Assembly (NCBI GenBank): GCA_963823665.1
Contig: CAWGMQ010000010.1
Span: forward strand, 1,760,001 to 1,824,000
DNA from: an uncultured Planctomycetota bacterium
GTDB taxonomy: Bacteria; Planctomycetota; Planctomycetia; Isosphaerales; Isosphaeraceae
Length of the DNA: 64,000 nt
Reading direction: 5' to 3'
In this document: piece by piece, positions 2,659 through 62,780 of the stretch
How positions within the stretch are numbered: the first letter of the stretch is position 1
Layout of the letters: every line of letters begins with the position of its first letter
Notes under the pieces: model-generated
The model's input: only the letters and a program-made list of their open reading frames with translations
Told to the model about the DNA's origin: nothing
The model's database searches: none
Program-made: the position numbers and the translations under genes

Positions 2659-2686
2659 TTACGGGTCCGCCCCCGGTTTCTCGCAT
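2659..2686 (+). promoter_or_regulatory. Putative ECF promoter TTACGG-N17-CGCAT
   Basis: Member of the repeated bipartite motif family with exact 17-nt spacing, preceded by an A-tract. Confidence 0.7.
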
Positions 2687-2933
2687 TGTATTCTGGACGG
2701 GCCCCACGGCCCGCCGCGGAGGCTCCCATTACCGTATCGGTCACTGTTGGCATCGTTATCGGCCGGGTATTCTGAGTCAGTTGCTCTTCACCAGGCCGGC
2801 TGCCTTTTTTCCTGTCCTCGCGCTGGCCTGCAGTGCGGAATATACCTTTAGAGGCTCTAACTTTTGGACGGGGAACCCCCGGTATCTTCAGGCCAAGCGC
2901 CTCATTCTGTTCAGTACCTCTCAGGGGACCATC

Positions 2934-3566
2934 ATGACCGCACCCGCGACCGACGAGGCCGACCTCTTGCGGCGGGCGAAGGCGGGCGATCAGCAGGCTG
3001 TGGCCACGCTGTTCGCCCGCTACCGCGACCGCCTGCGCAAGATGGTCCGGCTTCGCCTCGATCGCCGCCTGTACGGTCGCATCGACACGTCGGACGTCCT
3101 CCAGGACGCTTACCTGGAGGTGGCCCGACGCTTCCCCGAGTACGCGGCCTCCCCGACCGTGCCGTTCTACATCTGGCTGCGGTCCCTGACGGGGCAGCGG
3201 CTCGTCGATGTGCATCGCCGCAACCTGGGCGCGGAGATGCGCGATGCCGGGCGGGAGGTGTCGCTGTACCGCGGCCCACTGCCGGCGGCCTCGTCCGCGT
3301 CGCTGGCGCAGCACCTGCTGGCCGGCCTGACGTCGCCCACACAGGCCGCCATCCGGGCGGAGATGCAGCTTCGGCTGCACGAGGTGCTCAACAGCATGGA
3401 CCCGATCGACCGCGAGGTGGTCGTGCTGCGTCACTTCGAAGAACTGAGCAACATCGAGGCGGCCGAGGTCCTCGGGATCGAGACCTCGGCGGCCAGCAAG
3501 CGCTACATCCGGGCGATTCGACGGCTCAAGGCGATTCTCGACGCCGTGCCCGGGTTTTTCGGCTGA
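2934..3566 (+). CDS. ECF sigma-70 factor, planctomycete TIGR02984-like
   Basis: LLRRAKAGDQQAVATLFARYRDRL, RIDTSDVLQD, TSPTQAA and DREVVVLRHFEELSNIEAAEVLG; ATG at 2934 follows AGGGG. Confidence 0.9.
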   Translation: MTAPATDEADLLRRAKAGDQQAVATLFARYRDRLRKMVRLRLDRRLYGRIDTSDVLQDAYLEVARRFPEYAASPTVPFYIWLRSLTGQRLVDVHRRNLGAEMRDAGREVSLYRGPLPAASSASLAQHLLAGLTSPTQAAIRAEMQLRLHEVLNSMDPIDREVVVLRHFEELSNIEAAEVLGIETSAASKRYIRAIRRLKAILDAVPGFFG

Positions 3567-3584
3567 ACGTCCCGGAGGAATGCA

Positions 3585-6500
3585 ATGCCCTCGTCCCATT
3601 CGTCCCGCGATGTGGTGCTGGAGCGGTTGGCCGCGGATTTCGTCGAACGCCACCGCCAGGGCAAGCACCCGCCCCTGAGCGAGTACACCGACCGCTACCC
3701 CGACCTCGCCGCCGACATCCGCGATCTGTTTCCGGCGCTGGTGCAGATCGAGAAACTGAAGCCACCCACCGACGTCACCGACGACTTCGAGCGGCCGGCG
3801 ATAGCCGCCTTCGCCAACCTGGAGCGCCTCGGCGACTACCGCATCCTGCGTGAGGTGGGCCGGGGCGGCATGGGGGTCGTTTACGAGGCGGAGCAAGAAT
3901 CGCTCGGCCGGCACGTTGCCCTCAAGGTGCTGCCGTCCTCGGCGCTCCTGAACCCGACGTACCTGGCCCGCTTCCGCCGCGAGGCCCAGGCGGCCGGGCG
4001 GCTGCACCACACCAACATCGTGCCCGTCTTCGGCGTCGGCGATTGCGACGGCGTCCACTACTACGCCATGCAGTTCATCCAGGGCGAGGGGCTCGACAAG
4101 GTGCTCTGCCGACGTCCGCCGCCTCCGCCGGCCGCTGGATTCCGGTGAAGCGCTGCCCGCCGAGGGTAGCGTGGCGCACAGCCTTCTGACCGGCCAGTTC
4201 AACCCGCCCACGGCCGTCGATCCCGGCCAGCCGACCGAACACCCCGATTCTTCGTCGCTCACCTCGCGGCTGTCGCCGTGCGGGCCCGAGGCCGAATACT
4301 ACCGAGGCGTGGCGCGGATCGGCGTTCAGGTCGCCGACGCGCTGGCCTACGCCCACCGCCAGGGCATCCTGCACCGCGACGTCAAGCCGTCGAACCTGCT
4401 GCTCGATCTGCAGGGGACCGTGTGGGTCACCGACTTTGGGCTGGCCAAGGCCGAGGGAACCGAGGAGCTGACGCACACCGGCGACATCGTCGGCACGATC
4501 CGCTTCATGGCTCCCGAGCGGTTCGAGGGCAAGTCGCTGCCGCAGAGCGACGTCTATGGCCTGGGCCTGACGCTCTACGAGTTGCTGACACTCCGGCCGG
4601 CGTTCGACGACACGAACAAGGGCCGGCTCATCGACAGGGTGCTGCACGAGCCGCCCCGGCCGCCGTGCAAGCTCGACCCGCGGGTCCCGCGCGATCTGGA
4701 GACGCTCGTGCTGAAGTGCCTGACGAAGGACCCCAGCGAGCGCTACGCGACGGCCGAGGCGCTGGCGAAGGACCTGCGCCGTTTCCTGGCCGATCGCCCC
4801 ATCCATGCGCGGCGCGCCACCGCGGCCGAGCAAGCCTGGCGCTGGTGCCGCCGCAATCCCTGGCTGGCTGGCCTGTCGGCCGCCGTTCTGCTGCTCTTGC
4901 TGGTCGTGGCCATGGGTTCCCTGGTGTTCGCCCTGCGCTTGCAGCAGGAGCTGGGCCACCGGCGCCAGGCGGAAGGCGACGCGCTGGAGAAGCTGTTCAC
5001 GGCCCGGGTCGCCGAGGCACAGGCGCGGCGCTACAGCGGCCGATCCGGGCAGCGCTTCAAAAGCCTGGAGGCGATTCAGGAGGCGGTCCAGTTGGCCCGG
5101 CGACTGCAGAAGCCGCCCGAGACTTTCGACGAGCTGCGCAACGAGGCCATTGCCGCGCTGTGCTTGCCCGACATTGATGACGGTGGGCCCCAATGGAAGA
5201 CGGCGTGTCCCGCTTCCGACATGGCCTTCGACCCGACCGGGCAGGGCTACGTGCAAGTGGACGAGGGACACGCCTATTACTGTCGGCTGGTCGACGGGAA
5301 AGAACAGCGGCTCAAGGAGCTGCACGTTTCCGGGAGGGCCCTCTTTGGGGAGTGGCACAGCCCGGACCTCCGTTTTCTGGCCCTGGGCAGCCCGCACATT
5401 CCCGGGAAAGGGTACGACTGGCTGAAGCTGTGGCGCTGCGATGGGCCCCAGGCGAAGTTGGTGCTGGAAGATCGCGGGATATCCGAGTCGGCCACGGCGT
5501 TCCGGCCGGACGGGCGGCAACTGGCCGTCGGCCACCGCGACGGCACGCTCACGGTCCACGACACCGAAACGGGGGCGGTCGTGCGGCAGTGGCAGGTCGG
5601 AGTTCCCCCGTTCGCCGCCATGTTCCACCCCCGCCTTCCCCGCCTGGCCGTCGCTTGCGGGGCAGAGGTACGCCTCTACGACGTCGAGAGCGGCGCCCTC
5701 CTTTCCCCCCGGTTCACCAACCCCAACGGCGTGTCGGCTGTCGCCTGGAACCCAGACGGCAGAAGGCTGGCCATCGACTGCTTTGAGCAAAAACTCGTCC
5801 TGTGGGACAGCGAGACCGGGCAGCAACTGACCCCGCACTATGAGGGGCTCGGCGGCGCCGGCCTCGACCTCCGATTCAACGCGACCGGCGATCGCCTCCT
5901 CACCGCCGACTGGGGCGGAATCCTCCGCCTCTGGGACGCGGGTACGGGCAAGCAGCTATTCAACACGCCGCGTACCAGCTTACGGCCCACCTCGGGGTAT
6001 TGGCCCCGCTTTTGCCGGGATGACCAGTGTCTCGTGTTGCGATTCGCCGGAGACACCATCAAGTTACTGCGGTTCGCCCCAGGCCGAGAACACCGGGTGC
6101 TGATCTCGGCCACCCCGTCGATCATCGAGGACGACTTCTATCACCTGCTGTACCCGCACGGGTGGCTGTTGTCGGCGGACCTGGCGATCGAGGGCCGGTT
6201 TGGGTTTGATGCCTCGGGTGCCCTCTTGAGTCGGAATGCGAACGGAGTCTTCCGCTGGCCTGTCCGCGTGGACGCCGGCTCGCCAGAGAGCTACCGCCTG
6301 GGCCCGCCTCAGAGGGTCACCTCGCAGCACACCGCGCAGGCAACCATCGGCGACGAGCCGTTCGGTGCCTCCCGGGATGGGCGAGTGCTGGCGTTTGCGC
6401 ACGCGACGCACGCAACGGTCGTTCACATGGGCCCGCCGCTCCGAACACTGACCCTGGGGCCCCAGTACGACGTGCGACACGTCAGCGTCAGTCCCGATGG

Positions 6501-8084: not shown

Positions 8085-8112
8085 TTACGGGTTCGGTCCC
8101 GGTTTCTCGCAT
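8085..8112 (+). promoter_or_regulatory. Putative ECF promoter TTACGG-N17-CGCAT
   Basis: Repeated motif with exact spacing. Confidence 0.7.
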
Positions 8113-8531: not shown

Positions 8532-8559
8532 TTGCGGGTTCGGTCCCGGTTTCTCGCAT
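8532..8559 (+). promoter_or_regulatory. Putative ECF promoter TTGCGG-N17-CGCAT upstream of giant secreted protein 1
   Basis: Repeated motif; flanks homologous to the 2640-2720 and 8065-8145 copies. Confidence 0.7.
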
Positions 8560-8655: not shown

Positions 8656-11600
8656 ATGGCCAGCCATCGCAGACTTCAAGAGCGGTTCGCATTCGCCTCC
8701 CGCCCGGTTCACCATCACCGCCTCCGCCGCCGCCCGGACCTGGAGGTCCTCGAGGGCCGCGCCCTGCTGTCCACGTTCACCGTCAACAGCCTGGGCGATG
8801 TGGGGAGCGGTTCCGGCGACTCGGGCGACCTGCGGTACTGCATCAACCAGGCCAACGCCGATGACCAGGCGAACACGATCGTCTTCGATTCGACCATGTT
8901 CGGCACGCCCCAGACGATCACGCTCTCCAGCGGCGGCCAGCTCGAGCTGAGCGACACCGGCGGAACGCAGACGATCACCGGGCCGGCCGCGGGGGTGACC
9001 ATCAGCGGCGGCGGGAATAGCCGCGTCTTTCAGGTCGACAGCGGCGTGACGGCCTCGATTCTCCGGCCTGACCATCTCCGGCGGCTCAGTGCAGGGCAAA
9101 GGCGGCGGTCTGGCTGAACTACGGCACGGCGACGCATCACTGACTGCACCATAAGCGGCAACACCGTCACCAGATTCGTCTTCTACGGCCGATACGGCCA
9201 GGTGTACAGCGCCGACCAGGGCGGCGGCGTGTTCAATTCCGGAACGGCCGACCCTGACCGACTGCACCATCAGCGGCAACACCGCCTTCTCTATAGTCCG
9301 AAAGGCAAGACCAGGCTACGACACCTACTACTATTACAACTATTACGGCAACGGCGGCGGCGTGTTCAATGCCGGCACGGCCAAACTGACCGACTGCACC
9401 GTCAGCGGCAACGACGCCGGCGCCGCCGGATTCGCTGGCGGCGGCCTGTACAATCTCGGTACGGCCAACCTTATCCTGACCGACTGCACCGTCAGCGGCA
9501 ACACCGGCGGCGGCGAGGAAAACCTGGGCGTTACAACGTCACCCTGACCGACACCATCGTCGCCGGCAACAGCGGCGGCGACATCGCCGGTTACACCAAC
9601 GTCTCGGGCAGCTTTAACTTGATCGGCACCGGCGGCTCGGGGTCGGCTGACCAATGGCGTAGAATGGCAACATCGTCTTGACCAGCCTCACCGGTTTGGA
9701 CCTGGCCCCGCTCGGCAATTTTGGCGGGCCGACCCAGACCATGGCCTTGCTCCCCGGCAGCCCTGCCTTGGGCGCGGGTGTGATCGCCGACTACCCGGGC
9801 ACCACCACTCGCGATCACGACCGACCAACGCGGCGAGCCCCTCGACACACCCAATCCCGACATCGGCGCCTTCCAGTCCCAGGATCCCACGCTCACCGCG
9901 CTCTCCTTCTCGGGAATCAGCAACCAGGTTATCACCGACGGCACCTCGAGCGTGACCATTTCCGGTACGCTGGCCGACGGCTCGCAGGCCCCGGTGGGCG
10001 AGACCGTCGCCGTCACGCTCGATGGCGTGGAACAGTCGCCCACGATTGGCTCCGGCGGCGCCTTCTCCACGACCTTTGACACCACCAGCCTCACCGTGGC
10101 CAATTCGCCCTACACGGTCAACTATGTCTACTTGAGCGACGGCACCTTCGCCTCCGCCGATACCACCAGCGAGCTAACCGTCAACTCGGCGACGCCCACC
10201 ATCTTCACAGTCAACAGCTTGGGGGATGCCGGGAGCGGTTCCGGCGACTCGGGCGACCTGCGGTACTGCATCAACCAGGCCAACGCCGATGACCAGGCGA
10301 ATACGATCGTCTTCGATCCGACCCTGTTCAGCACGCCCCAGACGATCACGCTCTCAGGCACCGGGCTCTTTCTGGAAGACACCGGTGGAACGCAGACGAT
10401 CACCGGGCCGGCCGCGGGGCTGACCATCAAGAGCGGCGGGAACAGCCGCGTCTTTCAGATCGACGATGGTGTGACCGCCTCGATCTCCGGCCTGACCATT
10501 TCCGGCGGCACGGTCCAGTGGCCCGGTTCCGGTGGCGGTTTGAAGAACTACGGCACGGCGACGCTCACTGACTGCACGATCAGCGGCAACTCCGCCAACA
10601 TCGGCGGCGGCGTGTACAACGGCTCTTATGCCAACCTGACCCTGACCGACTGCACCGTCAGCGACAACTCGGCCCGGAGCTGGGGCGGCGGACTGTTCAA
10701 TGACGGCTTCGCCACCCTGACCGACTGCACCTTGAGCGGCAACTCGTCCGGGGGCGCGGGCGGAGGAGTGTTCAATACCGGCGTCGAATACGAAATGGGC
10801 GTCTTCCCCAAGCTGACCCTGACCGACTGCACCATCGGCGGCAACTCGGCCGGGGGCGGAGGCGGCGGGGTGTTCAATGACGCCACCGCCACGCTGACCG
10901 ACTGCACCGTCAGCGACAACTCGTCCGGGAGCACGGGCGGAGGCGTGTTCAATAAGGGCCCGGCCAACCTGACCCTGACCGGCTGCACCGTCAGCGGCAA
11001 CACCGGTGTCCGTGCCGGCGGTGTGGGAAATTACGCCGGCACGAGCACGCTGATCGACTGCACCGTCGGCGGCAACTACGCCGCCTACGGCGGCGGCGCG
11101 TTCAATTATTACCAAGAGGCCACCCTGATCCTGATCGACTGCACCGTGAGCGGCAACAACGCCACGGACTCCGGCGGTGGCGTGTTCAGTTACGGCACGG
11201 TCAACCTGACCGACACCATCCTCGCCGGCAACACCAGTGGCTCGAGCGCCAGCGACATCGTGGGTAACGTCTCGGGCAGCTTTAACTTGATCGGCACGGG
11301 CGGCTCGGGCGGGCTGGTTAATGGCGTCGACGGCAACATCGTCTTGACCAGCCTGAGCGGGCTCGGCCTGGCCCCGCTGGCCAAGAACGGCGGCCCGACC
11401 CAGACCATCGCCTTGCTCCGCGGCAGCCCGGCCATCGCCGCGGGTGTGATCGCCGACTATCCCGGCACCACCACTCCGATCACCACCGACCAGCGCGGCG
11501 AGCCCCTCGATTCGCCCTACCCTGACATGGGCGCCTTCCAGGTCCAGGGGTCCGGACTCATCGCGCTCTCCTTCTCGGGACTGAGCAACCCGAGCATCAC

Positions 11601-14600
11601 CTACGGCACCCCCAGCGTGACCATTTCCGGCACCCTCTCGAGCGGCTCGCGGGCCCCGGTGGGCGAGAGCGTCGCCGTGACGCTCGACGGCGTCCAGCAG
11701 TCGGCCAACATCGGCACCGGCGGCGCCTTCTCCACGACCTTCGACACCACCGGCCTCACCATTGCCAATTCGCCCTACACCGTCAGCTACGTCTACACGA
11801 GCGACGGGACTTTCGCCCCCGCCAGAACCACCAGCGAGCTGACGGTAACGCCCCCCATCTTCACCGTCAATAGCTTGGGAGACGCCGGGATCGGTTCCGG
11901 CGACTCGGGCGACCTGCGGTACTGCATCAACCAGGCCAACGCCGATGACGAGGCGAACACGATCGTCTTCGATCCGACCCTCTTCAGCACGCCCCAGACG
12001 ATCACGCTCAGCGGCGGCCAGCTCTCGCTGGAAGACACCGGCGGCACGCAGACGATCACCGGGCCGGCCACGGGGGTTACCATCAGCGGCGGCGGCAACA
12101 GCCGCGTCTTTCAGGTCGAACCCGGTGTGACAGCCTCGTTCTCCGGCCTGACCATCTCGGACGGCGCGTTAGTGCACGCCGGTGCCGGTCTGGAGAACTA
12201 CGGCACGGCGACGCTCACCGATTGCACAATCAGCGGCAACTCGCTCCCCGCCAGCGACCCCTACGGCACCCCCAGCGACGGCGCCGCCGTGTTCAATGGC
12301 CAAACGTTCCCGAACTACTACGGGACAAGATATGGCACGGGGAACCTGACGCTCATCGATTGCACCATCAGCGGCAACTCCTCCGGAGGATCTGGCGGCG
12401 GCGTGTTCAATTCCGGCACGGCCTACATCTACGGCTGCACCTTGAGCGACAACTATGGCGCTTCGAACAGCGGCGGCTTGTTCAATATCGGCACGGCCAA
12501 CCTGGCCGACTGCACCTTGAGCGGCAACTCCGCCGGTTTCAACGGCGGCGGTCTGGGCAACTACGGCGGCTGGAGCACGCTCGTCAACTGCACGATCAGC
12601 GGCAACTCCTCCACGATCGTCTCCGTCCGCGCCGGCGGCAGCTATGGCTACAACGGCGGCGTGTACAATTGGTCCGGCGCGGTCAACCTGACCGATACCA
12701 TCGTCGCCGGCAACACCAATTCCGTCGGCGCCAGCGCCGACATCGCCGGTCCCGGCAACGTCTCGGGCCGCTACAACCTGATCGGCCCCGGCGGCTCGGG
12801 GGGGCTGGTCAATGGAGTCTACGGCAACATCGTTCTAACCAGCCTCACCGGGTTGGGCTTGGCCCCGCTAGGCAACTACGGCGGCCCGACCCAGACCATG
12901 GCCTTGCTTCCCGGCAGCCCGGCGATCGGCGCGGGTGTGATCGCCGGCTACCCGGGCAACTTCATGACGCCGATCACCACCGATCAGCGCGGCCTCCCGC
13001 TCGACTCCCCCAATCCCGACATCGGCGCCTTCCAGAACCAGGGGTCCCCACTCCTCGGGCTAACCTTCTCGGTGAGCAATCAGAGCATCAACTACGGCAC
13101 GCCCAGCGTGACCATTTCCGGGACGCTGACCGACGGCGCGCGGGCCCCGGTGGGCGAGACCGTCGCCGTGACGCTCGACGGCGTCGAGCACTCGGCCACC
13201 ATCGGCCCTGGCGGCGCCTTTTCGACCACCCTCGACACCGCCGGCCTCACCGTGCCCGATTCGCCCTACACGATCATCTACGCGTATACCACCGACGGGA
13301 CCTTCGCCGCCGAGAGCACAACCAGCAAGCTGACGGTCAACCCGACGCTCATCACTTTGACGGTCGACAGCCTGGGGGATGCCGGGATCGGTTCCGGCGA
13401 CGCGGGCGACCTGCGGTACTGCATCGACCAGGCCAACGCCGATGACGTGCCAAACACGATCGTCTTCGATCCGACCGTCTTCAGCACGCCTCAGACGATC
13501 ACGCTCAGCGGTGGCCCGCTCGAGCTGAGCGACACCGCCGGAACGCAGACGATCACCGGGCCGGCCGCGGGGCTGACCTTGAGCGGCGGCGGGAGCAGCC
13601 GCGTCTTCCAGGTCGACTCGGGCGTGACCGCCTCGATCACCGGCCTGACCATCTCCGGCGGCTCGGCGGCGGGCCTTGGCGGCGGTCTGGCGAACTACGG
13701 CACCGCGACGCTCACCGACTGCACCTTGAGCGGCAACACATGCTTCAACTCACGCGGCGGCTACTGCGACGGCGGCGCCGTGTTCAATGGCCAAACGGCG
13801 CCGAACTACGACGGGGTCCGCTACGGCGCGGCCAACCTGACCCTGACCGACTGCACCTTGAGCGGCAACGACGCAACCTACGGCGGCGGAGTGTTCAATT
13901 CCGGCACGGCCAACCTGACCGACTGCACCTTGAGCGACAACGCCGCAACGTACGGCGGCGGCGTGCTCAACGTTTCCGGCACGGCCAACCTGACCGACTG
14001 CACCGTGAGCGGCAACTCCGCCGTCGGCTTGGGCGGCGGTCTGGCCAACTACGGCTACGCACAAACCGCGGTCGGCCCGGCCAACTTGACAGACACGATC
14101 GTCGCCGGCAACACCGATCCCTCCGGCGCCAGCGACATCGCCGGTGGCGACGTCTCGGGCAGCTTTAACCTGATCGGCACCGGCGGATCGGGGGGGCTGG
14201 TCAATGGAGTCGACGGCAACATCGTCTTGACCAGCCTCACTGGATTGGGCCTGGCCCCGCTGGGCAACAACGGCGGCCCGACCCAGACCATGGCCCTGCT
14301 CCCCGGCAGCCCGGCGATCGGCGCGGGTGTAATCGCCGACTACCCAGGCACCACCACTCCGATCACCACCGACCAGCGCGGCGAGCCCCTCGATTCGCCC
14401 AATCCCGACATCGGCGCCTACCAGACCCAGGGTTCCACACTCACGTCGCTCTCTTTCTCGGGGATCAGCAACCAGAGCATCACCTACGGCACCTCCAGCG
14501 TGACCGTTTCCGGTACGCTGGCCGACGGCTCGCAAGCCCCGGTCGGCGAGACCGTCGCCGTGACGCTCGACCACGTCCAGCAGTCGGCCACGATCGGCTC

Positions 14601-17201
14601 CGGCGGCGCCTTCTCCACCACCTTCAATGCCGACGGCCTCACCGTGTCCAATTCGCCCGACACGATCACCTACGCGTATACCAGCGACGGGACCTTCGCC
14701 TCCGCCAGCACCACCAGCACGCTGACGGTCAACCCGGCGACGCTCACCATCACGGCAAACCCCGAGACCAAGGTCTACGGCACCGCCGACCCGGCGCTGG
14801 CCTATACCGCCAGCGGCTTCCAGTTCCACGACACCGCCGACTCGGTCCTGACCGGCGCGCTGGCCCGGGCGCAGGCGGGCACCCTGGCCGGCGAGCAAGC
14901 CGGCGGCTACGCGATCAGCCAGGGGACGCTCGCCGCCGACAGCAATTACACGATCAGCTTCACCGGCAGCACGCTCACCATCACCCCGGCACCGCTAACC
15001 GTCACCGCCAATCCCCAGACCAAGGTCTACGGCACCGACGACCCCGCCTTGACCGACACGGCCACCGGATTTGTCGATACCACGGTCGACGGCGTGACGA
15101 TCGACGACACGGCCGCGACGGCGCTCTCGGGCCAGCTTGCGCGGACACCGGGCGAGACGGTATCCGGCGGCCCCTATGCGATCACCCAGGGGACGCTCGC
15201 CGCCGACAGCAACTACACGATCACCTTCACCGGCAGCACGCTCACCATCACCCCGGCTCCGCTGACCGTCACCGCCAATCCCCAGACCAAGGTCTACGGC
15301 ACGAGTGACCCCAGCTTGACCGACAGCGTGACCGGCCTGGTCGACACAACGGTGGACGGGCGTGACGATCGACGACACCGCCGCCTCGGTGCTGACGGGC
15401 CATCTGGTGCGCGGACGTCCGGCGAGACGGTGGCCGGCGGTCCCTACGCGATCACCCCGGGACGCTCGCCGCCGACAGCAATTACACGATCAGCTTCACG
15501 GGCAACACGCTGACGATTACCCCGGCCCCGCTGACCGTCACGGCCAATCCCCAGACCAAGGTCTACGGCACCGGCGATCCCAGCTTGACCGACAGCGTGA
15601 CCGGCCTGGTCGACACAACGGTGGACGGCGTGACGATCGACGACACCGCCGCGTCGGTGCTTACGGGCCATCTGGTGCGCGGACATCCGGCGAGACGGTG
15701 GCCGGCGGCCCCTACGCGATCACCCAGGGCACGCTCGCCGCCGACAGCAACTACACGCTCAGCTTCACCGGCAGCACGCTCACCATCACCCCGGCGACCT
15801 TGACCGTCACCGCCAATCCCCAGACCAAGGTCTACGGCACCGCCGATCCCGCCTTGACCGTCACGCCGGCAGGACTCGTCGACACAACGGTGGATGGCGT
15901 GACCATCGACGACACGCGCCGCGACAGTCCTCACCGGGTCGCCGGCCCGTGCCCAGGCGGGCACCATCGCCGGGGAGCAGGTGGGCCATTACGCAATCAC
16001 CCAGGGCACGCTCGCCGCCGACAGCAATTACACGCTGAGCTTCACCGCCAGCACGCTCACCATCACCCCGGCGACCTTGACCGTCACCGCCAATCCCCAG
16101 ACCAAGGTCTACGGCACCGCCGATCCCGCTCTGACCGACACCGCAACCGGATTTGTCGACACTACCGTCGACGGCGTGACGATCGACGACACCGCCGCGA
16201 CCGTGCTGACGGGCCAGCTTGCGCGCACACCCGGCGAGACGGTATCCAGCGGCCCCTACGCGATCACCCAGGGCACGCTCGCTGCCGACAGCAATTACAC
16301 GCTGAGCTTCACCGGCAGCACGCTGACGATCACCCCGGCGACGCTCACCATCACGGCGAAGCCCGAGACGAAGGTCTTCGGCTCAGCCGACCCGGCGCTG
16401 GCCTTCACCGCCGCCGGCTTCCAGTTCGGCGACACCGCCGCGACGGTGCTGAGCGGACATCTCTCGCGCGCAGCCGGCCAGACGGTGGCCGGCGGTCCCT
16501 ACGCGATCACGCAGGGGACGCTCGCGGCCGACGCCAACTATACGATCCAGTTCACCGCCAGCACGCTGACGATCACGCCGGCGACGCCCCTGGTGACCGA
16601 GAGCGCCGCGGGCGGGACCTACACCGGCGCTCCGATCGCCGCCACGGCTTCGGTCACAGGCGTCGGCAGCACGGCGACCCCGAACCTGGAAGACGTGACA
16701 CCGACCCTGACGTATTTTGCCGGTTCGAGCACCTCGGGCACGAATCTGGGCTCCACGGCCCCTTCCGCCGCCGGAACGTACACCGTCGTGGCCCGCTTCC
16801 CCGGCAGCGCCGATTACGCCGCGGCCCAGTCGAAGCCCGCCACCTTCACGATCACGCCGGCCACGACGACGATCGTCCTGGAGCCGCACGCGGTCCTCAC
16901 GCGAAAGAAGGTGCTGAAGGGAGTCGAGCTCACGGCGGCTATCCAGCCGATGACCCCCGGCGGCGGCGTGCCGACCGGCACGGTGACCTTCGAGTTCGTC
17001 ACGAAGCACGGGAAGAAGGTCAAGGTGACGACGCTCGGCACCGCGGCCTTGAGCGGCGGCGCGGCCACGCTGACGTTCAAGCCGAACAAGGTGCTGAACC
17101 AGACGCTGACGATCGTCTACAGCGGCGATCCCGACTTCCTGGCCAGCACGATGAGCCCGCCCAAATTGACCAAGTCCGAGGTCGCAAGTTCCAGGATTTG
17201 A
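8656..17201 (+). CDS. Giant secreted protein 1: planctomycete export motif, 4 beta-helix/choice-of-anchor-Q modules, 7 MBG-like repeats, C-terminal Ig-like domain (several frameshifts)
   Basis: RLRRRPDLEVLEGRALLS; repeats LTDCTxSGNxA..GGGVFN; [30 protein letters not shown]; TKVYGTx[25 protein letters not shown]. Confidence 0.85.
14740..16590 (+). repeat. Tandem ~250-275-bp MBG-like coding repeats (7 units)
   Basis: (A/G)AAGGTCT(A/T)CGGC (KVYG/KVFG) recurs near 14768, 15019, 15286, 15556, 15824, 16101 and 16368. Confidence 0.85.
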
Positions 17202-17216
17202 CCGGAGGGTAGCACC

Positions 17217-19258: not shown

Positions 19259-19285
19259 TGTCTCCGCGCCCCCGATTTCTCGCAT
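19259..19285 (+). promoter_or_regulatory. Variant ECF promoter TGTCTC-N16-CGCAT
   Basis: The -10 box and downstream flank (TTCTGGACGGGCC..GGCCCGCCGCG) match other copies; the -35 box is divergent and the spacer one base shorter. Confidence 0.45.
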
Positions 19286-23386: not shown

Positions 23387-23414
23387 TGGCGCGATTTCTG
23401 CGCCGTTGGCGCAT
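23387..23414 (+). promoter_or_regulatory. Putative ECF promoter TGGCGC-N17-CGCAT between sigma and kinase
   Basis: Repeated motif with exact spacing. Confidence 0.75.
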
Positions 23415-26554: not shown

Positions 26555-26582
26555 TTGCGCGATTTCCGCGCCGATGGCGCAT
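26555..26582 (+). promoter_or_regulatory. Putative ECF promoter TTGCGC-N17-CGCAT
   Basis: Homologous to 23387..23414 but with no sigma gene upstream. Confidence 0.7.
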
Positions 26583-43386: not shown

Positions 43387-43414
43387 TTACGGGTTCGGGC
43401 CCGGTTTCTCGCAT
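43387..43414 (+). promoter_or_regulatory. Putative ECF promoter TTACGG-N17-CGCAT
   Basis: Repeated motif with exact spacing. Confidence 0.7.
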
Positions 43415-45252: not shown

Positions 45253-48200
45253 ATGAGTAGCCATCGCAAACCTGGTCAGCGCTTTCGAAGTCGCCACCCG
45301 CCCGGTTCACCATCGCCGCCTCCGCGCCGCCCGGTCCTGGAGCTCCTCGAAGGCCGCGCCCTTCTGGCCACGTTCACCGTCAACAGCTTGGGGGATGCGG
45401 GGAGCGGTTCGGGCGACGCGGGTGACCTGGGGTACTGCATCAACCAGGCCAACGCCGATGACCAGGCGAACACGATCGTCTTCGATCCGACCGTCTTCGG
45501 CACGCCCCAGACGATTACGCTCTCTGGCGTCCCACTCGAGCTGAGCGACACCGGGGGCACCCAGACGATCACCGGGCCGGCCGCGGGGGTGACCGTCAGC
45601 GGCGGCGGAATCAGCCGCGTCTTTCAACTCGACAAAGGTGTGACCGCCTCGGTCTCCGGCCTGACCATCTCCGGCGGCTCGAGCTCGTACGGCAACGGCG
45701 GCGGTCTGCTGAACGACGGCACGGTGACGCTGACCGACTGCACCTTGAGCGGCAACACCGCAAGGTACGGCGGCGGCTTGTTCAATTCCGGCACGGCCGA
45801 CCTCACCGGCTGCACTCTCAGCGGCAACACCGCCTATTACAGTGCGTTTCGCACTATCGGCTATGTGAGCGCGTACGTCAACGTGGGCACCGGCGGGGGC
45901 GTGTTTAACGCCTCCTCGGCCATCCTGAGCTTGACCGACTGCACCGTCAGCGGCAGCTCCGCTGCCGGCGGCGGCGGCCTCGCCAATTTCGGCACGGCCA
46001 ACGTGAGTGACTGCACCTTCAGCGGCAACACCACCAGCGCCCTGGCCAATTTCAGCACGGCCAACCTGACCATGATTGACTCCACTATCAGCGGAAATTT
46101 TGGGAACTCTGGCGGCGGCGGCATGTTTAATTCAGGCACAGCCACCCTCACCGACTGCACCTTCAGCGGCAACGGCCCCGACGGCGTGAACAATGCCGGA
46201 ATGGCCGACCTGACCGGCTGCACCTCGAGCAGCAATTCCCTCGGTATGGACAATTCCGGAACGGCCGACTTGATCGACTGCACCTTGAGCAGCAACGAGA
46301 CCGCCTTGCTGAACGACGGCACGGCCAACCTGATCGACTCCACCGTGAGCGGTAATAACTGCGGAGGCGGAGAAGCCGGAGGCGTGGCCAATTACGACCT
46401 GGCCATCCTGACCGGCTGCACCGTGAGCGGCAACTCCTCCGGCAATGTTGCCGCCGGTGGCCTGCAAAACCTCTTCGCGGGGACGGTGATCCTGACCGAT
46501 ACCATTGTCGCCGGCAATACCGATTACTCCGGTCAGTACGTCCCCGGCGACATCTCCGGTAACGTTTCGGGCACCTACAACCTGATCGGCACCGGCGGCT
46601 CGGGGGGCCTGGTCAATGGGGTCGACGGCAACATCGTCTTGACCAGCCTCACCAACTTGGGCTTAGCCCCTCTGGGCAACTTTGGCGGGCCGACTCAAAC
46701 CATGGCCTTGCTCTCCGGCAGCCCGGCCATCGCCGCGGGTGTGATCGCCGACTATCCGGGCACAACCACCCCGATCACAACCGACCAGCGCGGCGAGCCG
46801 CTCGACACACCCAACCCCGACATCGGCGCCTTCCAGGTCCAGGGGTCCGGCCTCATCGCGCTGACCTTCTCGGGACTCAGCAACCCGAGCATCAACTCCG
46901 ACATCCCCAGCGTGTCCATCTCCGGTACGTTGGCCAACGGCTCGCAGGCCCCGGTCGGCGAAAGCGTCACCGTGACATTGGACGGCGTCCAGCAGTCGGC
47001 CACAATCGGCTCCGGAGGCGCGTTCTCCACGAGCTTCGACACGACCGGCCTCTTGGTCGCCAATTCGCCCTACACGGTCGACTTCGCGTATTTCGGCGAC
47101 GGGACGTTCGCCCCCGCCAGCACCACTAGCACGCTGACGGTCGAGCCAACGCACACCATCTTAACGGTAAACAGCCTGGGAGATGCGGGGATCGGTTCCG
47201 GCGACGCGGGCGACCTGCGTTACTGCGTCAACCAGGCCAACGCCGATGACGGGGTAGACACGATCGTCTTCGATCCGACCGTCTTCAGCACGGCCCAGAC
47301 GATCACGCTCTCCGGCGGCCAGCTCGAGCTGAGCGACACCGGCGGAATGCAGACGATCACTGCCCCGGCCGCGGGGTTGACCTTGGGCGGCGGCGGGAGC
47401 AGCCGCGTCTTCGAGATCGACTCTGGTGTGACTGCCTCGCTCTCCGGCGTGACCATCTCCGGCGGATCGATCTCGTCGGGCAATGGCGGCGGTCTGGCGA
47501 ACTACGGCACGGCGACGCTCACCGGCTGCACGATCCAGGGCAACTCGGCCCAGGACTCCTACGGCGCCGGCGGCGGCGGCGTGTTCAGTGGCGAGGGGGC
47601 CGACCTGACCCTGACCGACTGCACCGTCAGCGGCAACTCCGCCGACGACGGTGGCGGCGGTCTGGAAAACAAGGGCACGGCCACCCTGACCGACTGCACC
47701 GTCAGCGGCAACACCGGCTCCTACGGCGGCGGCGTGTTCGAAAACTACAAGGCCCAACTGAGCCTGACCGGCTGCACGGTAAGCGGCAACTCCGCCGCCA
47801 CCTACGGCGGCGGCCTGGACGCCAACAGCTACCCCTCCAGCTACATCACAGTCGTGACCGACACGATCGTCGCCGGCAACACCAATCCCTCCGGCGCCAG
47901 CGACATCGGCGGTAACGCTTCGGGCACCTACAACCTGATCGGCACCGGCGGCTCGGGGGGCCTGGCCAATGGGGTCGACGGCAACATCGTCGGCGTGGCC
48001 AATCCCCTCCTGGCGCCGCTGGACAACTACGGCGGGCCGACCCAGACCATCGCCCTGCTCGCCGGCAGCCCCGCCTTGGGCGCCGGTGTGATCGTCGACT
48101 ACCCGGGCACCACCACCCCGATCACCACCGATCAGCGCGGCCTCCCGCTCGACTCCCCCAATCCCGACATCGGCGCCTTCCAGAACCAGGGGTCCCCACT

Positions 48201-51200
48201 CCTCGGGCTGACCTTCTCGGTGAGCAATCAGAGCATCACCTACGGCACGCCAAGCGTGACCATTTCCGGGACGCTGGCCGACGGCGCGCAGGCCCCGGTG
48301 GGCGAGACCGTCGCCGTGACGCTCGACGGCGTCGAGCAGTCGGCCACCATCGGCCCTGGCGGCGCCTTCTCCACCACCCTCGACACCGCCGGCCTCACCG
48401 TGCTCGATTCGCCCTACACGGTCGACTACGCCTATGCGTATACCAGCGGCACGAGCTTCGCCTCCGCCAGTGCCACGAGCAAGCTGACGGTCAACCCGAC
48501 GCTCATCACTTTGACGGTCGACAGCCTTGGGGATGCGGGGATCGGTTCCGGCGACGCGGGCGACCTGCGGTACTGCATCGACCAGGTCAACGCCGACGAC
48601 CAGTCGAACACGATCGTCTTCGATCCGACCGTCTTCGGCACTGCCCAGACGATCACGCTCTCCGGCGGCACGCTCGAGCTGGAAAACATCTGGGGGACGC
48701 AGACGATCACCGGGCCGGCCGCGGGGTTGACCTTGAGCGGCGGCGGGAGCAGCCGCGTCTTCCAGGTCGACTCGGGTGTGACCGCCTCGATCACCGGCGT
48801 GACGATCACCGGCGGATCGATCTCGTCGGGCAATGGCGGCGGTCTGGCGAACTACGGCGCGGCGACGCTCACCGGCTGCACGATCCAGGGCAACTCGGCC
48901 CAGGACTCCTACGGCGGCGGCGTGTTCAATGCCGCGGGGGCCAACCTGACCCTGACCGACTGCACCGTCAGCGGCAACTCCGCCGACGTCTACGGCGGCG
49001 GCGGTCTGGGAAACAAGGGCACCGCCACCTTGACCGACTGCACCTTGAGCGGCAACACCGGCTCCTACGGCGGCGGCGTGCTCAATGCCTACACGGGCAA
49101 GCTGACCCTGACCGACTGCACCGTCAGCGGCAACTCCGCCACCTACGGCGGCGGCGTGTTCGAATACTTAAAGGCCCAACTGAGCCTGACCGGCTGCACG
49201 GTCAGCGGCAACTCCGCCCAGGGCGGCGGCGGCGGCCTGTACGCGGCCAGCTACTCCTCCAGCTACAACACAGTCCTGACCGACACGATCGTCGCCGGCA
49301 ACACCGATCCCTCCGGCGCCAGCGACATCGCCGGTCGGGGAAACGTCTCGGGCAACAACAACCTGATCGGCACCGGCGGCTCGGGGCGGCTGGTCAATGG
49401 CGCGAGCGGCAACATCGTCCTGACCAGCCTCACCGGCTTGGACCTGGCCCCGCTGGGCAACAACGGCGGCCCGACCCAGACCATGGCCCTGCTCCCCGGC
49501 AGCCCGGCGATCGGCGCAGGTGTCGTCGCCGACTACCCGGGCACCACCACTCCGATCACCACCGACCAGCGCGGTGAGCCGCTCGACTCCTCCAATCCCG
49601 ACATCGGCGCCTTCCAGACCCAGCCTCCCACACTCACCTCACTGACCTTCTCGGGAATCAGCAGCCAGAGCATCACATACGGCAGCACGAGCGTAACCGT
49701 TTCCGGTACGCTTGCCAACGGTTCGCAAGCCCCGGTGGGCGAGACCGTCGCCGTGACGCTCGACCACGTCCAGCAGTCGGCCAGGATCGGCTCCGGCGGC
49801 GCCTTCTCCACCACCTTCAATGCCGACGGCCTCACCGTCGCCGGCTCGCCCGACACGGTCAAGTATGCCTACTCGAGCGACGGGACCTTCGCCTCCGCCA
49901 GCACCACCAGCACGCTGACGGTGAACCCGGCGACGCTCACCATCACGGCAGAACCCGAGACCAAGGTCTACGGCGCCGACGACCCGGCGATGGCCTATAC
50001 CGTCAGCGGTTTCCAGTTCCACGACACCGCCGGATCGGTCCTGACCGGGTCCCTGGCCCGGACGGAGTCGGGCACCCTGTCCGGCGAACAGGCCGGCGGC
50101 TACGCGATCAGCCAGGGGGCGCTCGCGGCCAGCAGTAATTACATCATCAGTTTCACGGGCAATACGCTGACCATCACCCCGGCGCCCTTGACAGTCACCG
50201 CCCATGCCCAGACCAAGGTCTACGGCACCGACGACCCCGCCTTGACCGACACGGCCACCGGACTTGTCGATACCACAGCCGACGGGGTGACGATCGACGA
50301 CACGGCCGCGACGGCGCTGGCGGGCGATCTGGCGCGGACACCGGGCGAGCCGGTATCCGGCGGCCCCTATGCGATCACCCAGGGGACGCTCGCGGCGAGC
50401 AACTACACGATCACCTTTACCGGCAGCACGCTCGCCATCACCCCGGCGCCCTTGACCGTCACCGCCAATCCCCAGACCAAGGTCTACGGCACGGCCGATC
50501 CCACCCTGACCGACACCGCAACCGGATTTGTCGACACCACGGTCGACGGCGTGACGATCGACGACACCGCCGCCACGGCGCTGACGGGCCATCTGGCGCG
50601 CACATCCGGCGAGACGGTATCCGGCGGCCCCTATGCGATCACCCAGGGAACGCTCGCGGCGAGCAACTACAAGATCACCTTCACCGGCAGCACGCTCACG
50701 ATTACCCCGGCGCCCTTGACCGTCACCGCCAATCCCCAGACCAAGGTCTACGGCACGGCCGATCCCACCCTGACCGATACCGCAACCGGATTTGTCGACA
50801 CCACGGTCGACGGGGTGACGATTGACGACACAGCCGCGACTGCCCTCACGGGCGAGCTTGCGCGGACACCGGGCGAGACGGTATCCGGCGGCCCCTATGC
50901 GATCACCCAGGGCACGCTCGCGGCGAGCAACTACACGATCACCTTCACCGGCAGCACGCTCACCATCACCCCGGCAACGCTAACCATCACGGCCAATCCG
51001 CAGACCAAAGTCTACGGCACGGACGATCCCGCCTTGACCGATACCGCAACCGGCTTCGTCCACACCACGGTCGACGGCGCGGCGATCGACGACACCGCCG
51101 CGACGGTGCTGACGGGCCAGCTTGCGCGGACACCCGGCGAGACGGTTTCCGGCGGCCCCTACGAGATCACCCAGGGGACGCTCGCGGCCAGCAGTAACTA

Positions 51201-52723
51201 CACCATCAGCTTCACCGGCAATACCCTGACCATCACGCCGGCGCCCTTGACCATCACGGCCAGTCCGCAGACCAAAGTCTACGGCACGGACGATCCCGCC
51301 TTGACCGATACCGCAACCGGCTTCGTCCACACCACGGTCGACGGCGCGGCGATCGACGACACCGCCGCGACGGTGCTGACGGGCCAGCTCGCGCGGACAT
51401 CCGGCGAGACGGTATCCGGCGACCCCTATGCGATCACCCAGGGCACCCTCGCGGCCGACAGCAATTACACACTGAGCTTCACCGGCAGCACGCTCGCGAT
51501 CACCCCGGCGACCTTGAACGTCACCGCCAATCCCCAGACGAAGGTCTACGGTACCGCCGACCCCAGATTGACCGATGGAGTGACCGGTCTCGTCGATACA
51601 ACGGTGGACGGCGTGATGATCGACGACACGGCCGCGACTGTCCTGACCGGCGCGCTTGCCCGGGCGGAGGCCGGCACCGTGGCCGGCGAACAGGCCGGCG
51701 GCTACGCGATCACTCAGGGCACGCTCGCGGCGAACAGCAACTACACAATCCAGTTCAATGCGAGCAACCTGACGATTAGCCCAGCAACGCCGACCGTGAG
51801 CGTGCTCGCTCCGGGCGGGGTTTATACCGGCTCGCGGATCGCAGCCCAGGCGACGGTGGCCGGCACAAGCGGCACATCGGCCGCCAGCCTCGAGGGCGTC
51901 TCCCCGGCTTTGACCTATTACGTCGGTTCGGGCACTTCAGGCACAAGCCTCGGCTCGACACCGCCGATCCAGCCGGGGACTTACACGGTGGTGGCCAGCT
52001 TCCCCGACAGCGCCGATTACGTTGCGAGCCAGTCATTGCCGGTGACATTCACCATCGGCAAGGCCGCCCCGACGATCGCGCTGGTTCCCTCCGTCGAATC
52101 ATCGGTCTTCGGCCAGTCGGTGACGCTGACCGCCTCGATCGCCTTTGACGCCGCCGTGCCGGGCGGCTCGGTCACGTTCTACGATGGCTCGACGGCGCTG
52201 GGCACCGCGGCGGTCAACGCCTCGGGCAAGGCCATGCTGGCCACGGCGGCGCTCGGGGTCGGCATACATTCGCTCACCGCTTCGTACGCGGGCGACTCCG
52301 ACTTCGCGTCCAGTGTGTCGAAGGCCTCTGAAGAGTCGGTCTCCGCAAGCCGCCACCCAGGTCGTCCTGGTCCCGCAGCCGGTGTTCAGGCACAAGCGCA
52401 ACCTGGTCTCGCTTGGCCTGAAAGCCCAGGTCCAGCCGACAGCCCCGGCGAGTGGAGTGCCCACCGGCAGCGTGACCTTCGAGATCCAGAAAAAGGTAGG
52501 AAAGAAGTTGACCGAAAAGGTGCTGGGAACCGTCGCACTCAGCGGCGGGTCGGCGACCCTCTCAGTCAAGCCTGGCGTCGTGCTCGACAAGCCGATCACG
52601 GTCCTTTACAGCGGCGCCTCCGACTTCACAGCGAGCACCACTGCGCCCTCTTTGCTGACGATGAAGGCACTCGATCGAATGGCCCAACAGTCCGCGACTC
52701 CCCGATCCAGCCGCCACCACTGA
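45253..52723 (+). CDS. Giant secreted protein 3: 3 beta-helix/choice-of-anchor-Q modules, 7 MBG-like repeats, extra Ig-like domain (frameshift near 52345)
   Basis: [15 protein letters not shown]; same repeat motifs as genes 1 and 2; [18 protein letters not shown] Ig-like domain; C-terminus in ORF 52145..52723. Confidence 0.88.
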
Positions 52724-52997
52724 CGCGGCGGCACCGCTCGGTCCAGGTGCCACGCCACCGAGCCCGCCCGCAGTTGCCAGTCGTTCGCCAAAGACGCCGA
52801 ACACGCCAAGAACGCCTTGCGGCGACCCAAGGCGCCCAAGGGCTGTCCCCTCGCTCCCTTGTCGAGACTTTCGATATGGTTGCGACGCAGTTATGCTGAT
52901 CGTAGCAGCATCCTTGTCGGCCAGCGGCCGAGCCCGCAACAGCGAGTCGCGGCCTATCACGAGCCGCGGGCAGCGTCCCATTATGGTTGGTCTTCCA

Positions 52998-53569
52998 ATG
53001 AACGATGTCACGAAGATCCTCTCGGCTATCGAGCGGGGCGACCCGAAGGCGGGCGACCAGCTCCTGCCGCTGGTCTACGATGAGCTGCGCCGGCTGGCTG
53101 CCCGACGGCTCGCCCACGAGAGGCCAGGCCAGACGTTGCAGCCAACCGCCCTGGTGCATGAGGCCTATCTCCGGCTCGTCGGGTCCGGCGAGCCGCTGCG
53201 CTGGGAGGGGCGCGGCCATTTCTTCGCCGCGGCTGCCGAGGCTATGCGGCGTATCCTCGTCGAGGCGGCGCGGCGCAGCGCACCCTCAAACGCGGCGGCG
53301 ACCGTCAGCGTGAGCCTGTCGACCTCGACGCCCTGCACGCCGGTGGCCCCGCGCAGGACGTTTTGGCCCTGCACGAGGCCCTGGAGCAGCTCGCCGCACA
53401 CGACCCCCTCAAGGCCAGGCTGGTGGAGATGCGGGTCTTCGGCGGCCTGACTCTGAACGAGGCGGCCGACTGCCTGGGCATCCCGGAGCGATCCGCCGAC
53501 CGCGCCTGGCGGTACGCCCGGGCCTGGTTGTACGCCTCCATGGCCGGGGAAGATTCCGGGAAAAAATGA
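52998..53569 (+). CDS. ECF sigma factor, TIGR02999/ECF43-like (frameshift near 53275)
   Basis: [41 protein letters not shown]. Confidence 0.88.
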
Positions 53570-53577: not shown

Positions 53578-53605
53578 TGACGCTTTTCGGGCTTCGACGA
53601 CGCAT
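53578..53605 (+). promoter_or_regulatory. Putative ECF promoter TGACGC-N17-CGCAT
   Basis: Directly follows a divergent sigma gene; spacer sequence unrelated but length identical. Confidence 0.75.
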
Positions 53606-57056: not shown

Positions 57057-57084
57057 TGGCGCGCCCGTCCCGTGGATCTCGCAT
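57057..57084 (+). promoter_or_regulatory. Putative ECF promoter TGGCGC-N17-CGCAT upstream of a sigma gene
   Basis: Both boxes and spacing conserved with a unique spacer sequence. Confidence 0.65.
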
Positions 57085-57225
57085 TCAGTTACGGGGGGCG
57101 GCCGCGGGCACCGAATCTCCTTGAGCTCGACCGCGCAGGCCGGGACGCCACACCTCAAGGACGGGATGGCGTGCGGCTTCTTGTCCTGATCGATCTCCGT
57201 CGCCGCATGCAGTATGATGCCCGGC

Positions 57226-57790
57226 ATGAGTGAAGTGACCGAGCTCTTGAATCAGATCCAGCATGGCGATCCGCAAGCCGCTGCGGACTTGCTGCCCTTG
57301 GTCTATGCCGAATTGCGTCGGCTCGCCGCGGCGCGGTTGGCTCGTGAAAAGCCAGGACAGACACTGGATGCGACGGCCTTGGTGCACGAAGCGTACCTGC
57401 GCCTGGTGGGGCCGGCGGACGAGGAACGCTGGCAGAATTGCGGCCATTTCTTTGCCGCTGCGGCCGAAGCGATGCGCCGAATTCTCGTCGAGCTTGCCCG
57501 GCGAAAGAGTCGAAAGAAACGCGGGGGCGAACGTGCCCGCATGAAGCTGGATGACGTCGAGCCGGCTGCTGAGGCGCCTGGCGATGACTTGCTGGCCCTC
57601 GACGAAGCCTTGACCCGGCTTGCCGGTGCCGATCCGATCGCCGCGGAGCTCGGTGAAACTGCGCTATTTTGCCGGCATGACGATTCCTCAAGCTGCCGAC
57701 GCTCTGGGCATAGGGAAGCGGTCGGCCGACCGGATCTGGCTGTATGCCCGTGCCTGGCTGCGCAATGCGCTTTCTGACAGTCAGGAATGA
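57226..57790 (+). CDS. ECF sigma factor, TIGR02999/ECF43-like, close paralog of 22808..23365 (frameshifts near 57650-57700)
   Basis: [24 protein letters not shown]; 3' end reads WLYARAWLRNALSDSQE* in an alternate frame. Confidence 0.85.
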
Positions 57791-57805: not shown

Positions 57806-57833
57806 TGGCGCAATTTCTGCGCCGTCGGCGCAT
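57806..57833 (+). promoter_or_regulatory. Putative ECF promoter TGGCGC-N17-CGCAT
   Basis: Homologous to 23387..23414. Confidence 0.75.
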
Positions 57834-62633: not shown

Positions 62634-62655
62634 CGGAACGAGACCGGGATTAGCT

Positions 62656-62730
62656 GCCGAGAAGGACTGAGCATACGCGCGCGGCCGGCCGCGAGTGGTG
62701 ATCGACCGCATGTCCGGCTGCCGACCCTGA
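62656..62730 (+). pseudogene. Orphan ECF sigma 3' tail with an internal stop
   Basis: AEKD*AYARGRPRVVIDRMSGCRP*. Confidence 0.7.
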
Positions 62731-62752
62731 TCGACCGGGAAGCAAAAAAACG

Positions 62753-62780
62753 TTACGGGTTGGCCCGCGGTTTCGCGCTT
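62753..62780 (+). promoter_or_regulatory. Putative ECF promoter TTACGG-N17-CGCTT (mutated -10 box)
   Basis: Homologous to 2659..2686. Confidence 0.55.

Follow-up and report, generated by a model that had tools for sequence, protein, structure and literature searches.

The 64,000-nt stretch analysed here (the window), from contig CAWGMQ010000010.1 of an uncultured planctomycete of the family Isosphaeraceae, carries an array of genes lying exclusively on the + strand, namely Ser/Thr kinases with TPR or WD40 tails, three sigma factors of family TIGR02999, one of family TIGR02984, TIGR03118-like genes and large adhesin-like genes (Table 1). A bipartite motif, consisting of a hexamer followed after 17 nt by CGCAT, recurs between these genes and is examined here as a candidate promoter for sigma factors of the extracytoplasmic function (ECF) type. 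The TIGR02999 genes score 206 bits (22799), 150 bits (57214) and 111 bits (52893, the first frame of a two-frame gene, below the cut-off of 126). The kinases possess one membrane helix, with hydropathy peaks of 2.0-2.8 behind the kinase domain, and outer TPRs.

Table 1. Motif sites and principal genes of the window (TM, transmembrane; ORF, open reading frame)
Feature	Position	Strand	Score (bits)	Context
Class A site, TTACGG-N17-CGCAT	2659..2686	+	20.9	behind sigma-tail relic 2571-2633
TIGR02984 (planctomycete-specific) ECF sigma, intact	2934..3566	+		possible target, not reader
Class A site	8085..8112	+	21.9	ahead of broken TIGR03118-type leader
Class A site (TTGCGG)	8532..8559	+	23.2	96 nt before adhesin start 8656
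Choice-of-anchor Q / MBG-domain adhesin-like gene, several frames	8656..17212	+		
Class A copy, -35 box lost	19259..19285	+		before kinase-WD40 gene 19326-22758 (frameshifted)
TIGR02999 ECF43-like sigma, intact, 188 aa	22799..23365	+	206 (cut-off 126)	
Class B site, TGGCGC-N17-CGCAT	23387..23414	+	24.9	47 nt before kinase-TM-TPR start 23462
Class B copy (TTGCGC)	26555..26582	+		46 nt before second kinase-TPR gene (26629, frameshifted)
Class B copy	29927..29954	+		behind sigma-tail relic; before broken TIGR03118-like gene 30165-30793
Site with class B boxes, own flanks	30915..30942	+	22.1	261 nt before adhesin start 31204
Beta-helix / choice-of-anchor Q / MBG adhesin-like gene, two ORFs	31204..38777	+		
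Class A copy	43387..43414	+		behind sigma-tail relic 43299-43355; 261 nt before intact TIGR03118 gene 43676-44875
Intact 2548-aa adhesin-like ORF	45253..52899	+		no own site
TIGR02999 sigma in two frames, break near 53277	52998..53569	+		second frame T99, R168, D171, R172
Site TGACGC-N17-CGCAT	53578..53605	+	18.1	159 nt before kinase 53765
Site TGGCGC..CT-CGCAT	57057..57084	+	16.3	ahead of sigma 57217
TIGR02999 sigma, two frames (break near 57660)	57217..57790	+		paralog of 22799, 85-91% identical
Class B site	57806..57833	+		47 nt before intact kinase-TM-TPR gene 57881-60445
Class A copy with CGCTT	62753..62780	+	13.2	behind sigma-tail relic 62656-62727; 41 nt before frameshifted kinase start 62822

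Distribution and copy history of the motif in the window

A search of both strands with the pattern T[TG][AG]CG[GC]-N17-CGCAT revealed 11 exact matches on the + strand and none on the - strand, and control spacers of 10 to 25 nt gave single matches only, at N14 (+), N18 (+) and N25 (-). All 11 lie where an earlier sequence-only reading of this DNA had placed them, against about 0.4 expected per window, and the CGCTT variant that it reported at 62753 was likewise recovered. Its supposed N16 variant at 19259 is instead a class A copy (defined below) that has lost the -35 box (TGTCTC; similarity begins at 19267; score -2.6 or lower). The 12 sites are intergenic, as claimed, in that all fall outside intact ORFs, with 8532 placed within a broken leader ORF of TIGR03118 type, in its out-of-frame tail, and the motif indeed follows all three TIGR02999 sigma genes (23387, 53578 and 57806). 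Site 2659 precedes a kinase-start remnant without ATG, and the TIGR02984 sigma gene begins 247 nt further on. Scanned over the window and 200 kb of flank, the full motif model also matched at 142 and 1229 (12-13 bits), within kinase coding DNA, and these matches were taken as background. Sites are absent from some cassettes (adhesin 45253, remnant leader 60508 and kinase 39164), and an Rfam search of the window returned no structured RNA match.

The excess of the motif is local, not genome-wide. In the whole genome (16.46 Mb) the exact N17 pattern occurs 114 times, with 13 of these matches inside this array, which is little above the 89 and 98 matches obtained with the wrong spacers N15 and N20 (0.35-0.38 per 64 kb); a reversed-pattern control gave 33 genome matches and understates the background. 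Given these counts, a genome-wide regulon was rejected.

The sites (INDEPENDENCE) sort into class A (2659, 8085, 8532, 43387 and 62753, with 19259 as a broken member), class B (23387, 26555, 29927 and 57806) and three singles (30915, 53578 and 57057). Within each class the sites are copies of a single junction, which for class A corresponds to that behind a TIGR02999 sigma gene 11.9 kb upstream of the window (L031, at -11880) and for class B to that behind the 22799 sigma gene. Decayed 3' tails of TIGR02999 sigma genes precede five sites (2571-2633, 8031, 29867, 43299-43355 and 62656-62727). The window sites thus represent at most five lineages (A, B, 30915, 53578 and 57057). Contrary to the proposal that duplication alone does not explain the conservation, most sites arose by duplication; the three singles lie outside both copy classes. 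A blastn comparison of the flanks of 30915 with the class B junction found no match, and this site is the best candidate for a separately arisen target. Since copying explains most of the site count, the window alone cannot show a regulon.

In a congener (G001), the class A sigma has an orthologue, and class A sites stand at seven positions, five before kinases and two before adhesin-like genes; the order differs from that of the window, but a class A site precedes the adhesin in the same arrangement as at 8532. No class B cassette was found in the 140 kb of G001 examined. A duplication of the kinase-WD40 gene that follows the TIGR02984 sigma did not include the sigma (3585-8100 and 39100-43400), and each copy ends in a class A site.

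A second repeated leader, in which TCACCGAACTG is followed by a GC-rich inverted repeat, occurs at 8218, 30013, 43524 and 60508 and partially at 31036, ahead of TIGR03118-like and adhesin ORFs. It had no Rfam match and may be another promoter or an RNA element. As it intervenes between the motif and the TIGR03118-like genes, the latter may have their own control, and the suggested targeting of TIGR03118-like proteins is less sure than that of the kinases. The adhesin and TIGR03118-like proteins at 8656, 31204, 43676, 45253 and 60660 have in common an N-terminus that is rich in Arg and closes with L-E-x-(L/I)-E-x-R-x-L-(L/M), a planctomycete export-leader-like word. Di-haem oxidoreductase/MauG-like ORFs occupy 17217-19224, between adhesin and kinase.

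Frameshifts occur throughout the window, affecting most kinases, two sigmas and several adhesins, and some are also present in the array of G001; the kinase-TM-TPR gene starting at 23462, for example, is frameshifted and ends at 26541. Both decay and assembly error are retained as readings. One base at 19426-19428 is missing from the contigs of all four sequencing runs examined, which cover fragments of relatives only; this hints weakly that the frameshift there is particular to this assembly.

The motif behind TIGR02999 sigma genes elsewhere

TIGR02999 loci were collected from the same genome, relatives, named genomes and metagenomes. With 150 of 362 candidates scored, at least 41 TIGR02999 genes of the genome itself exceed the cut-off, and 30 of these loci were fetched. 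An unseeded Gibbs search on 200-nt segments covering the stop codons of 77 foreign TIGR02999 sigmas (two of 79 loci dropped, for lack of downstream DNA and as a duplicate; near-duplicates removed) returned TG(G/A)(G/C)(G/A)(G/C)-N17-CGCA(T/C)TG, that is, the same boxes in the same register as first described. In held-out sets, from which the window-related loci L031, L038 and L073 were excluded, matches of at least 10 bits were found at 12 of 51 relatives and 14 of 24 own paralogs, with none on the opposite strand and one in 510 and none in 240 shuffles, respectively. The spacer of 17 nt was found at 29 of these 75 loci, other lengths at 5-16. A second held-out set had the motif downstream of 51 of 80 sigmas and a third, metagenomic set (seven of 80 loci without downstream DNA left out) at 54 of 73, compared with 2 of 73 on the opposite strand. 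These blind and held-out searches support the earlier claim that an ECF-type promoter tied to TIGR02999 sigmas precedes their kinase. In the 200 nt upstream of the sigma gene, the motif was found at 0/51, 0/24, 2/77, 0/80 and 0/71 loci of the relatives, own paralogs, training, second and third sets, respectively, and within the window only at 57057. Unlike in autoregulated ECF systems, the promoter is thus not upstream of its own sigma gene.

The kinase gene is next in 126 of 133 motif loci, and the distance from box to ATG is 19-57 nt in 117 of these 126 (training loci included in both counts). Paludisphaera borealis PX4 is a cultured carrier, with TGAGGC-N17-CGCATTG between BSF38_RS29440 and BSF38_RS29435 on its plasmid PALBO1. 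Sorted by sigma identity to those of the window, the motif occurs at 0/31 loci below 50%, 6/18 at 50-55%, 32/53 at 55-60% and 41/58 above, and is accordingly a property of a sigma subgroup. The motif-free distant group (<50% identical) is clustered on the tree (4 changes), and 7 of its 13 kinase gaps are ≤15 nt; L392 is one motif-bearing exception among distant sigmas. A variant -10 box, AGCATG, accompanies sigmas with D92 and D/N96 (L044, L046, L051 and L055; G000) and scores low with the model, so the motif-positive counts are lower bounds. Outside Planctomycetota, the motif was present in 9 of 20 loci of two genomes titled Verrucomicrobiota and Chthoniobacterales and in 2 of 12 further loci of the same phylum, and in none of four loci from Gemmatimonadota, Betaproteobacteria and Bacteroidota, where the Eleftheria sigma overlaps its kinase gene by 4 bp; the comparison includes one true proteobacterial locus (L407), the label of L152 (G089, titled Alcaligenaceae), a genome that drew the same sample as the phylum of the window, being probably wrong.

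At TIGR02984 genes the motif was found at 0/46 loci downstream and 0/45 upstream, which rules out the TIGR02984 sigma as its reader, and a de novo search upstream of the 46 genes found no motif. The sequence-only reading had used the TIGR02984 sigma as an internal control. In the window this control is weak, given that only 18 bp separate the gene from the following ORF and that site 2659 is located upstream of the gene, but it holds at the 46 other loci.

Co-variation of sigma residues and motif bases

Sigma-motif pairs were accepted from 154 of 241 loci (score of at least 8, at least 49% identity), of which 134 were left under 80% identity, and mutual information was calculated between all sigma residues and 36 bases in these 134 non-redundant pairs. 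The bases were numbered by matching the published ECF code, which sets the first C of CGCAT at -12. The top pairs were 99/-14; 171/-31 and -30; 168/-33 and -32; 172/-34; 73/-8; and 92/-13 and -12. R99 goes with G at -14 in 57 of 60 pairs (other residues, 2 of 74), R168 with GC (50/55) and A168 with AG (30/39) at -33/-32, E171 with GG (28/32), Y171 with A (15/16) and K171 with CC (8/10) at -31/-30, R172 with G at -34 (93/100), D73 with T (48/50) and N73 with C (40/44) at -8, and N92 with GG at -13/-12 (6/6).

In leave-one-out prediction of the 134 pairs, the residue was correct more often than the nearest sigma (115 vs 63, 120 vs 81, 119 vs 86, 111 vs 88, 120 vs 77 and 122 vs 94), with no gain at 171/-30 (90 vs 88) and 92/-13 (72 vs 82). 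Disjoint pairs of close sigmas differing in the residue changed in the predicted versus the opposite direction 45:0, 37:0, 39:0, 30:0, 37:0, 23:1 and 31:0, compared with 6:7, 18:7, 14:5, 12:9, 10:3 and 12:5 for six mismatched control pairs. For 57 pairs collected later, the code outperformed the nearest sigma at each of the seven positions, with margins ranging from 5 to 28 (48 vs 20, 44 vs 37, 50 vs 32, 48 vs 29, 42 vs 31, 38 vs 33 and 46 vs 40).

By profile alignment, residues 168, 171 and 172 fall on the SigL word G-T-V-K-S and residue 92 on the last residue of SigL N-M-I-I-D; the link from SigL to RpoE numbering rests partly on what we take to be the RpoE word GTVRS. In an AlphaFold model of the sigma, of moderate confidence (pLDDT 71, pTM 0.39) and used for helix limits only, residues 92, 96 and 99 lie on helix 76-101 and residues 168-172 at the start of helix 167-187. 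A fold search with this model gave no match with E ≤ 0.001, with SigL on top, and a single-sequence search of the PDB gave no sigma with E < 0.2.

The motif combines two boxes, a rigid spacer (16-18 nt class) and an orientation facing the downstream gene with co-variation between the boxes and sigma4.2 and sigma2.4 residues at known contact positions, as in ECF-type sigma70 promoters. Table S1 of Todor et al. (2020) lists Gly168/-33, Arg171/-31 and -30, Ser172/-34 and Asn84/-13 and -12, and three of these residues were tested by experiment, according to the parts of that study used here (PMC7776599). Mainly because the residue positions agree with that code, the motif is very probably a promoter read by the adjacent sigma. 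That a different factor, either a paralog acting in trans or another regulator, reads the motif, and that the co-variation reflects joint inheritance of neighbouring DNA, is very unlikely: although some of the TIGR02999 genes of this genome share the same code residues, site 53578 fits no local sigma and well-supported independent pairs are few, linkage would raise all residues alike, and only six stand out, four of them at positions of the tested ECF code; moreover, the base is predicted better from the residue than from the nearest sigma, and 19-33 changes of the traits were counted on the tree.

The code was applied to the window after being rebuilt without the window's own pairs; the 22799 sigma has T53 and, at the six code positions, R73, E92, R99, R168, D171 and R172. 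All class A sites were assigned to the -11880 sigma, with which they score 3.3 to 4.6, versus -2 to -11 with the class B sigmas; with the 52998 sigma, 8532 reaches 2.7 as well. Sites 23387, 26555, 29927, 30915 and 57806 were assigned to the 22799/57217 sigma pair. Two small local regulons are the likely arrangement, class A for the -11880 sigma and class B for 22799/57217. The idea that TTACGG and TGGCGC sites are read by different sigma paralogs fits this code, with the amendment that the sigma fitting TTACGG lies outside the window, at -11880. Site 57057, ahead of the 57217 sigma, best fits the 52998 sigma (score 6.1), and a sigma cascade in which 52998 drives 57217 is possible. Extra sites near other sigmas match their local code at a mean of 4.9 of 8 positions, compared with 3.3 in the null (0 of 2000 draws as high), and 8 of these 32 sites match at all 8 positions.

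It is unlikely that the promoter is real at sigma-kinase junctions only and that the extra window sites are passive relics of a decaying array, with no adhesin or TIGR03118-like regulon. The sigma-tail relics before five sites, the kinase start without ATG behind 2659, the lost -35 box at 19259, the many frameshifts, the different cassette order in G001 together with the absence of class B from its 140 kb, and the second leader before TIGR03118-like genes would all fit such relics; yet class A sites precede kinases and adhesin-like genes in both genomes though the upstream sequence has been replaced, 14 copies show almost no variation in the -35 box, the class B boxes of 30915 stand in unrelated flanks, and a quarter of the extra sites elsewhere match the local code fully. 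We lean slightly towards the adhesin sites being live, and some copied sites are probably dead.

Proposed feedback loop and relation to known systems

As the motif lies between sigma and kinase and co-varies with the sigma residues, it is likely the promoter of each sigma's own kinase. By analogy with the pairs EcfP-PknT and EcfK-PknS, the promoter of the kinase that activates each sigma is probably read by that sigma, which would close a positive feedback loop. Basal read-through or another promoter would supply sigma and kinase, and a signal at the outer TPR or WD40 domain would switch the kinase on; the kinase would then phosphorylate the conserved Thr53 of sigma2.2, as in EcfP and EcfK, and the phosphorylated sigma would bind RNA polymerase and start transcription about 7-8 nt after CGCAT, so that more kinase is made, the sigma gene itself having no such promoter. 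The piece consisting of sigma tail and promoter would have been copied repeatedly before further kinase, adhesin and TIGR03118-like genes. Thr53 is kept in 133 of 134 and 57 of 57 sigmas, within the sigma2.2 words QATA (71), QPTA (22) and DATA (15). The loop would be absent if the sigma bound the site without a productive promoter (pause or roadblock) or worked without kinase input, which seems highly improbable: the site may lie inside a single sigma-kinase transcript, and an acidic residue stands two positions ahead of the Thr in 24 of 134 sigmas (15 DATA, 9 EATA), but the Thr is almost invariant, and the boxes, rigid 17-nt spacer, strand and distance to the ATG fit the 20-40 nt leaders of predicted ECF promoters in the portions of Todor et al. 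compared (PMC7776599).

A tentative extension, with less than even chances, is a plug-in receptor array. With the promoter placed after the sigma and before the kinase, each duplication of promoter plus kinase (or adhesin) would connect another gene to the loop of that sigma, and the six-residue code would separate dozens of paralogous loops; one sigma would thus gather many sensor kinases (five behind the class A sigma in G001) and surface proteins, and some loops would be linked as cascades, with 52998 driving 57217 through site 57057. Kinase domains located behind promoters of class A and of class B share ~93% identity, and their TPR/WD40 tails differ (23674-24360, 26843-27529, 58091-58780 and upstream copies); at this identity, one kinase type may serve two sigma types.

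Several observations weigh against promoter, loop and regulon as proposed. Two of the six mismatched controls lean in the predicted direction (18:7, p 0.04; 14:5, p 0.06), and a strict tree test retained 3-9 independent pairs on well-supported branches, none opposite, with p 0.03-0.25. Among close sigmas without the motif, 41 of 57 still have the kinase next. Within the window, 53578 contradicts the code of the sigma before it and fits none of the four local sigmas, the class A 'AC' is a minority outcome for S168, and two of the three TIGR02999 sigmas and most kinases are frameshifted. Variation per position in the 14 class A copies is 0.17 in the -35 box, 1.06 in the spacer and 1.75 in the next 20 nt, with the -10 stretch (7 positions) at 1.0, kept no better than the spacer, which suggests some selection on -35 without a distinct signal on -10. 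Few extra sites occur near other sigmas: 673 kb contained 32, versus about 20 expected (3 in 103 kb). Finally, the window sigma has D-A-T-A, with an acidic residue near the Thr, making the need for phosphorylation less sure.

Planctomycetes carry dozens of such sigma-kinase pairs, for which the portions of the ECF literature compared give no promoter. The consensus and the residue-to-base table allow the targets of each paralog to be predicted from sequence; the feedback layout suggests amplification of the sensor, not of the sigma, and the pairs may offer synthetic biology a natural collection of switches that are insulated and gated by phosphorylation. The titles and abstract beginnings listed by literature searches contained no report of this motif, a point on which the ECF Hub logos, Datasets S2/S6 of Todor et al. 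and other supplements may bear.

Neither the system nor the code is new in kind. A wider ECF43 set reportedly comprises over 900 members (Iyer 2020). In the parts of the literature consulted, EcfP-PknT of Vibrio parahaemolyticus and EcfK-PknS of Xanthomonas citri are pairs of an ECF43 sigma and a Hanks kinase (PMC8999054, PMC13147305, PMC7826278), in which the sigma lacks the acidic sigma2.2 word and is activated by Thr phosphorylation through the adjacent kinase, as established for EcfP and EcfK (PMC8999054, PMC13147305). The present pairs share with them the PF07638/TIGR02999 sigma domain, the kinase at +1 with one membrane helix and outer TPRs, no anti-sigma seen, and the sigma2.2 Thr in a Q-x-T-A word (ECF43 consensus QTTA). 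In the sections used of Casas-Pastor 2021, ECF43 is confined to Proteobacteria, with a predicted promoter of GTC (-35) and CAG (-10) (PMC7826278); here the motif is TGRSRS-N17-CGCAY downstream of the sigma, with neither GTC/CAG nor Proteobacteria, and the name 'ECF43-like' is used.

According to the same parts of that classification, planctomycete ECF59, ECF61 and ECF62 also pair the sigma with an adjacent kinase (at +1 in most cases, in ECF61 at -2) and have WD40 or TPR sensors, as do the pairs described here, and their promoter motifs are reported as not conserved (ECF61 and ECF62) or as only TC (ECF59) (PMC7826278); the TIGR02984 (ECF62-like) sigmas of the present comparison had no motif on either side. 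The mutual information approach and the contact positions are those of Todor et al., who, in the parts of the paper used, confined their motif mining to sequence upstream of the sigma gene, of its operon or of a divergent gene, and whose main text does not contain 'ECF43', 'Planctomyc' or 'kinase' (PMC7776599). Unlike in Table S1 of that study, the strongest pair here is 99/-14, which that table lacks, and -8 follows residue 73 instead of Arg76; unlike EcfP-PknT and EcfK-PknS, the present systems occur as dozens of paralogs per genome with different codes.

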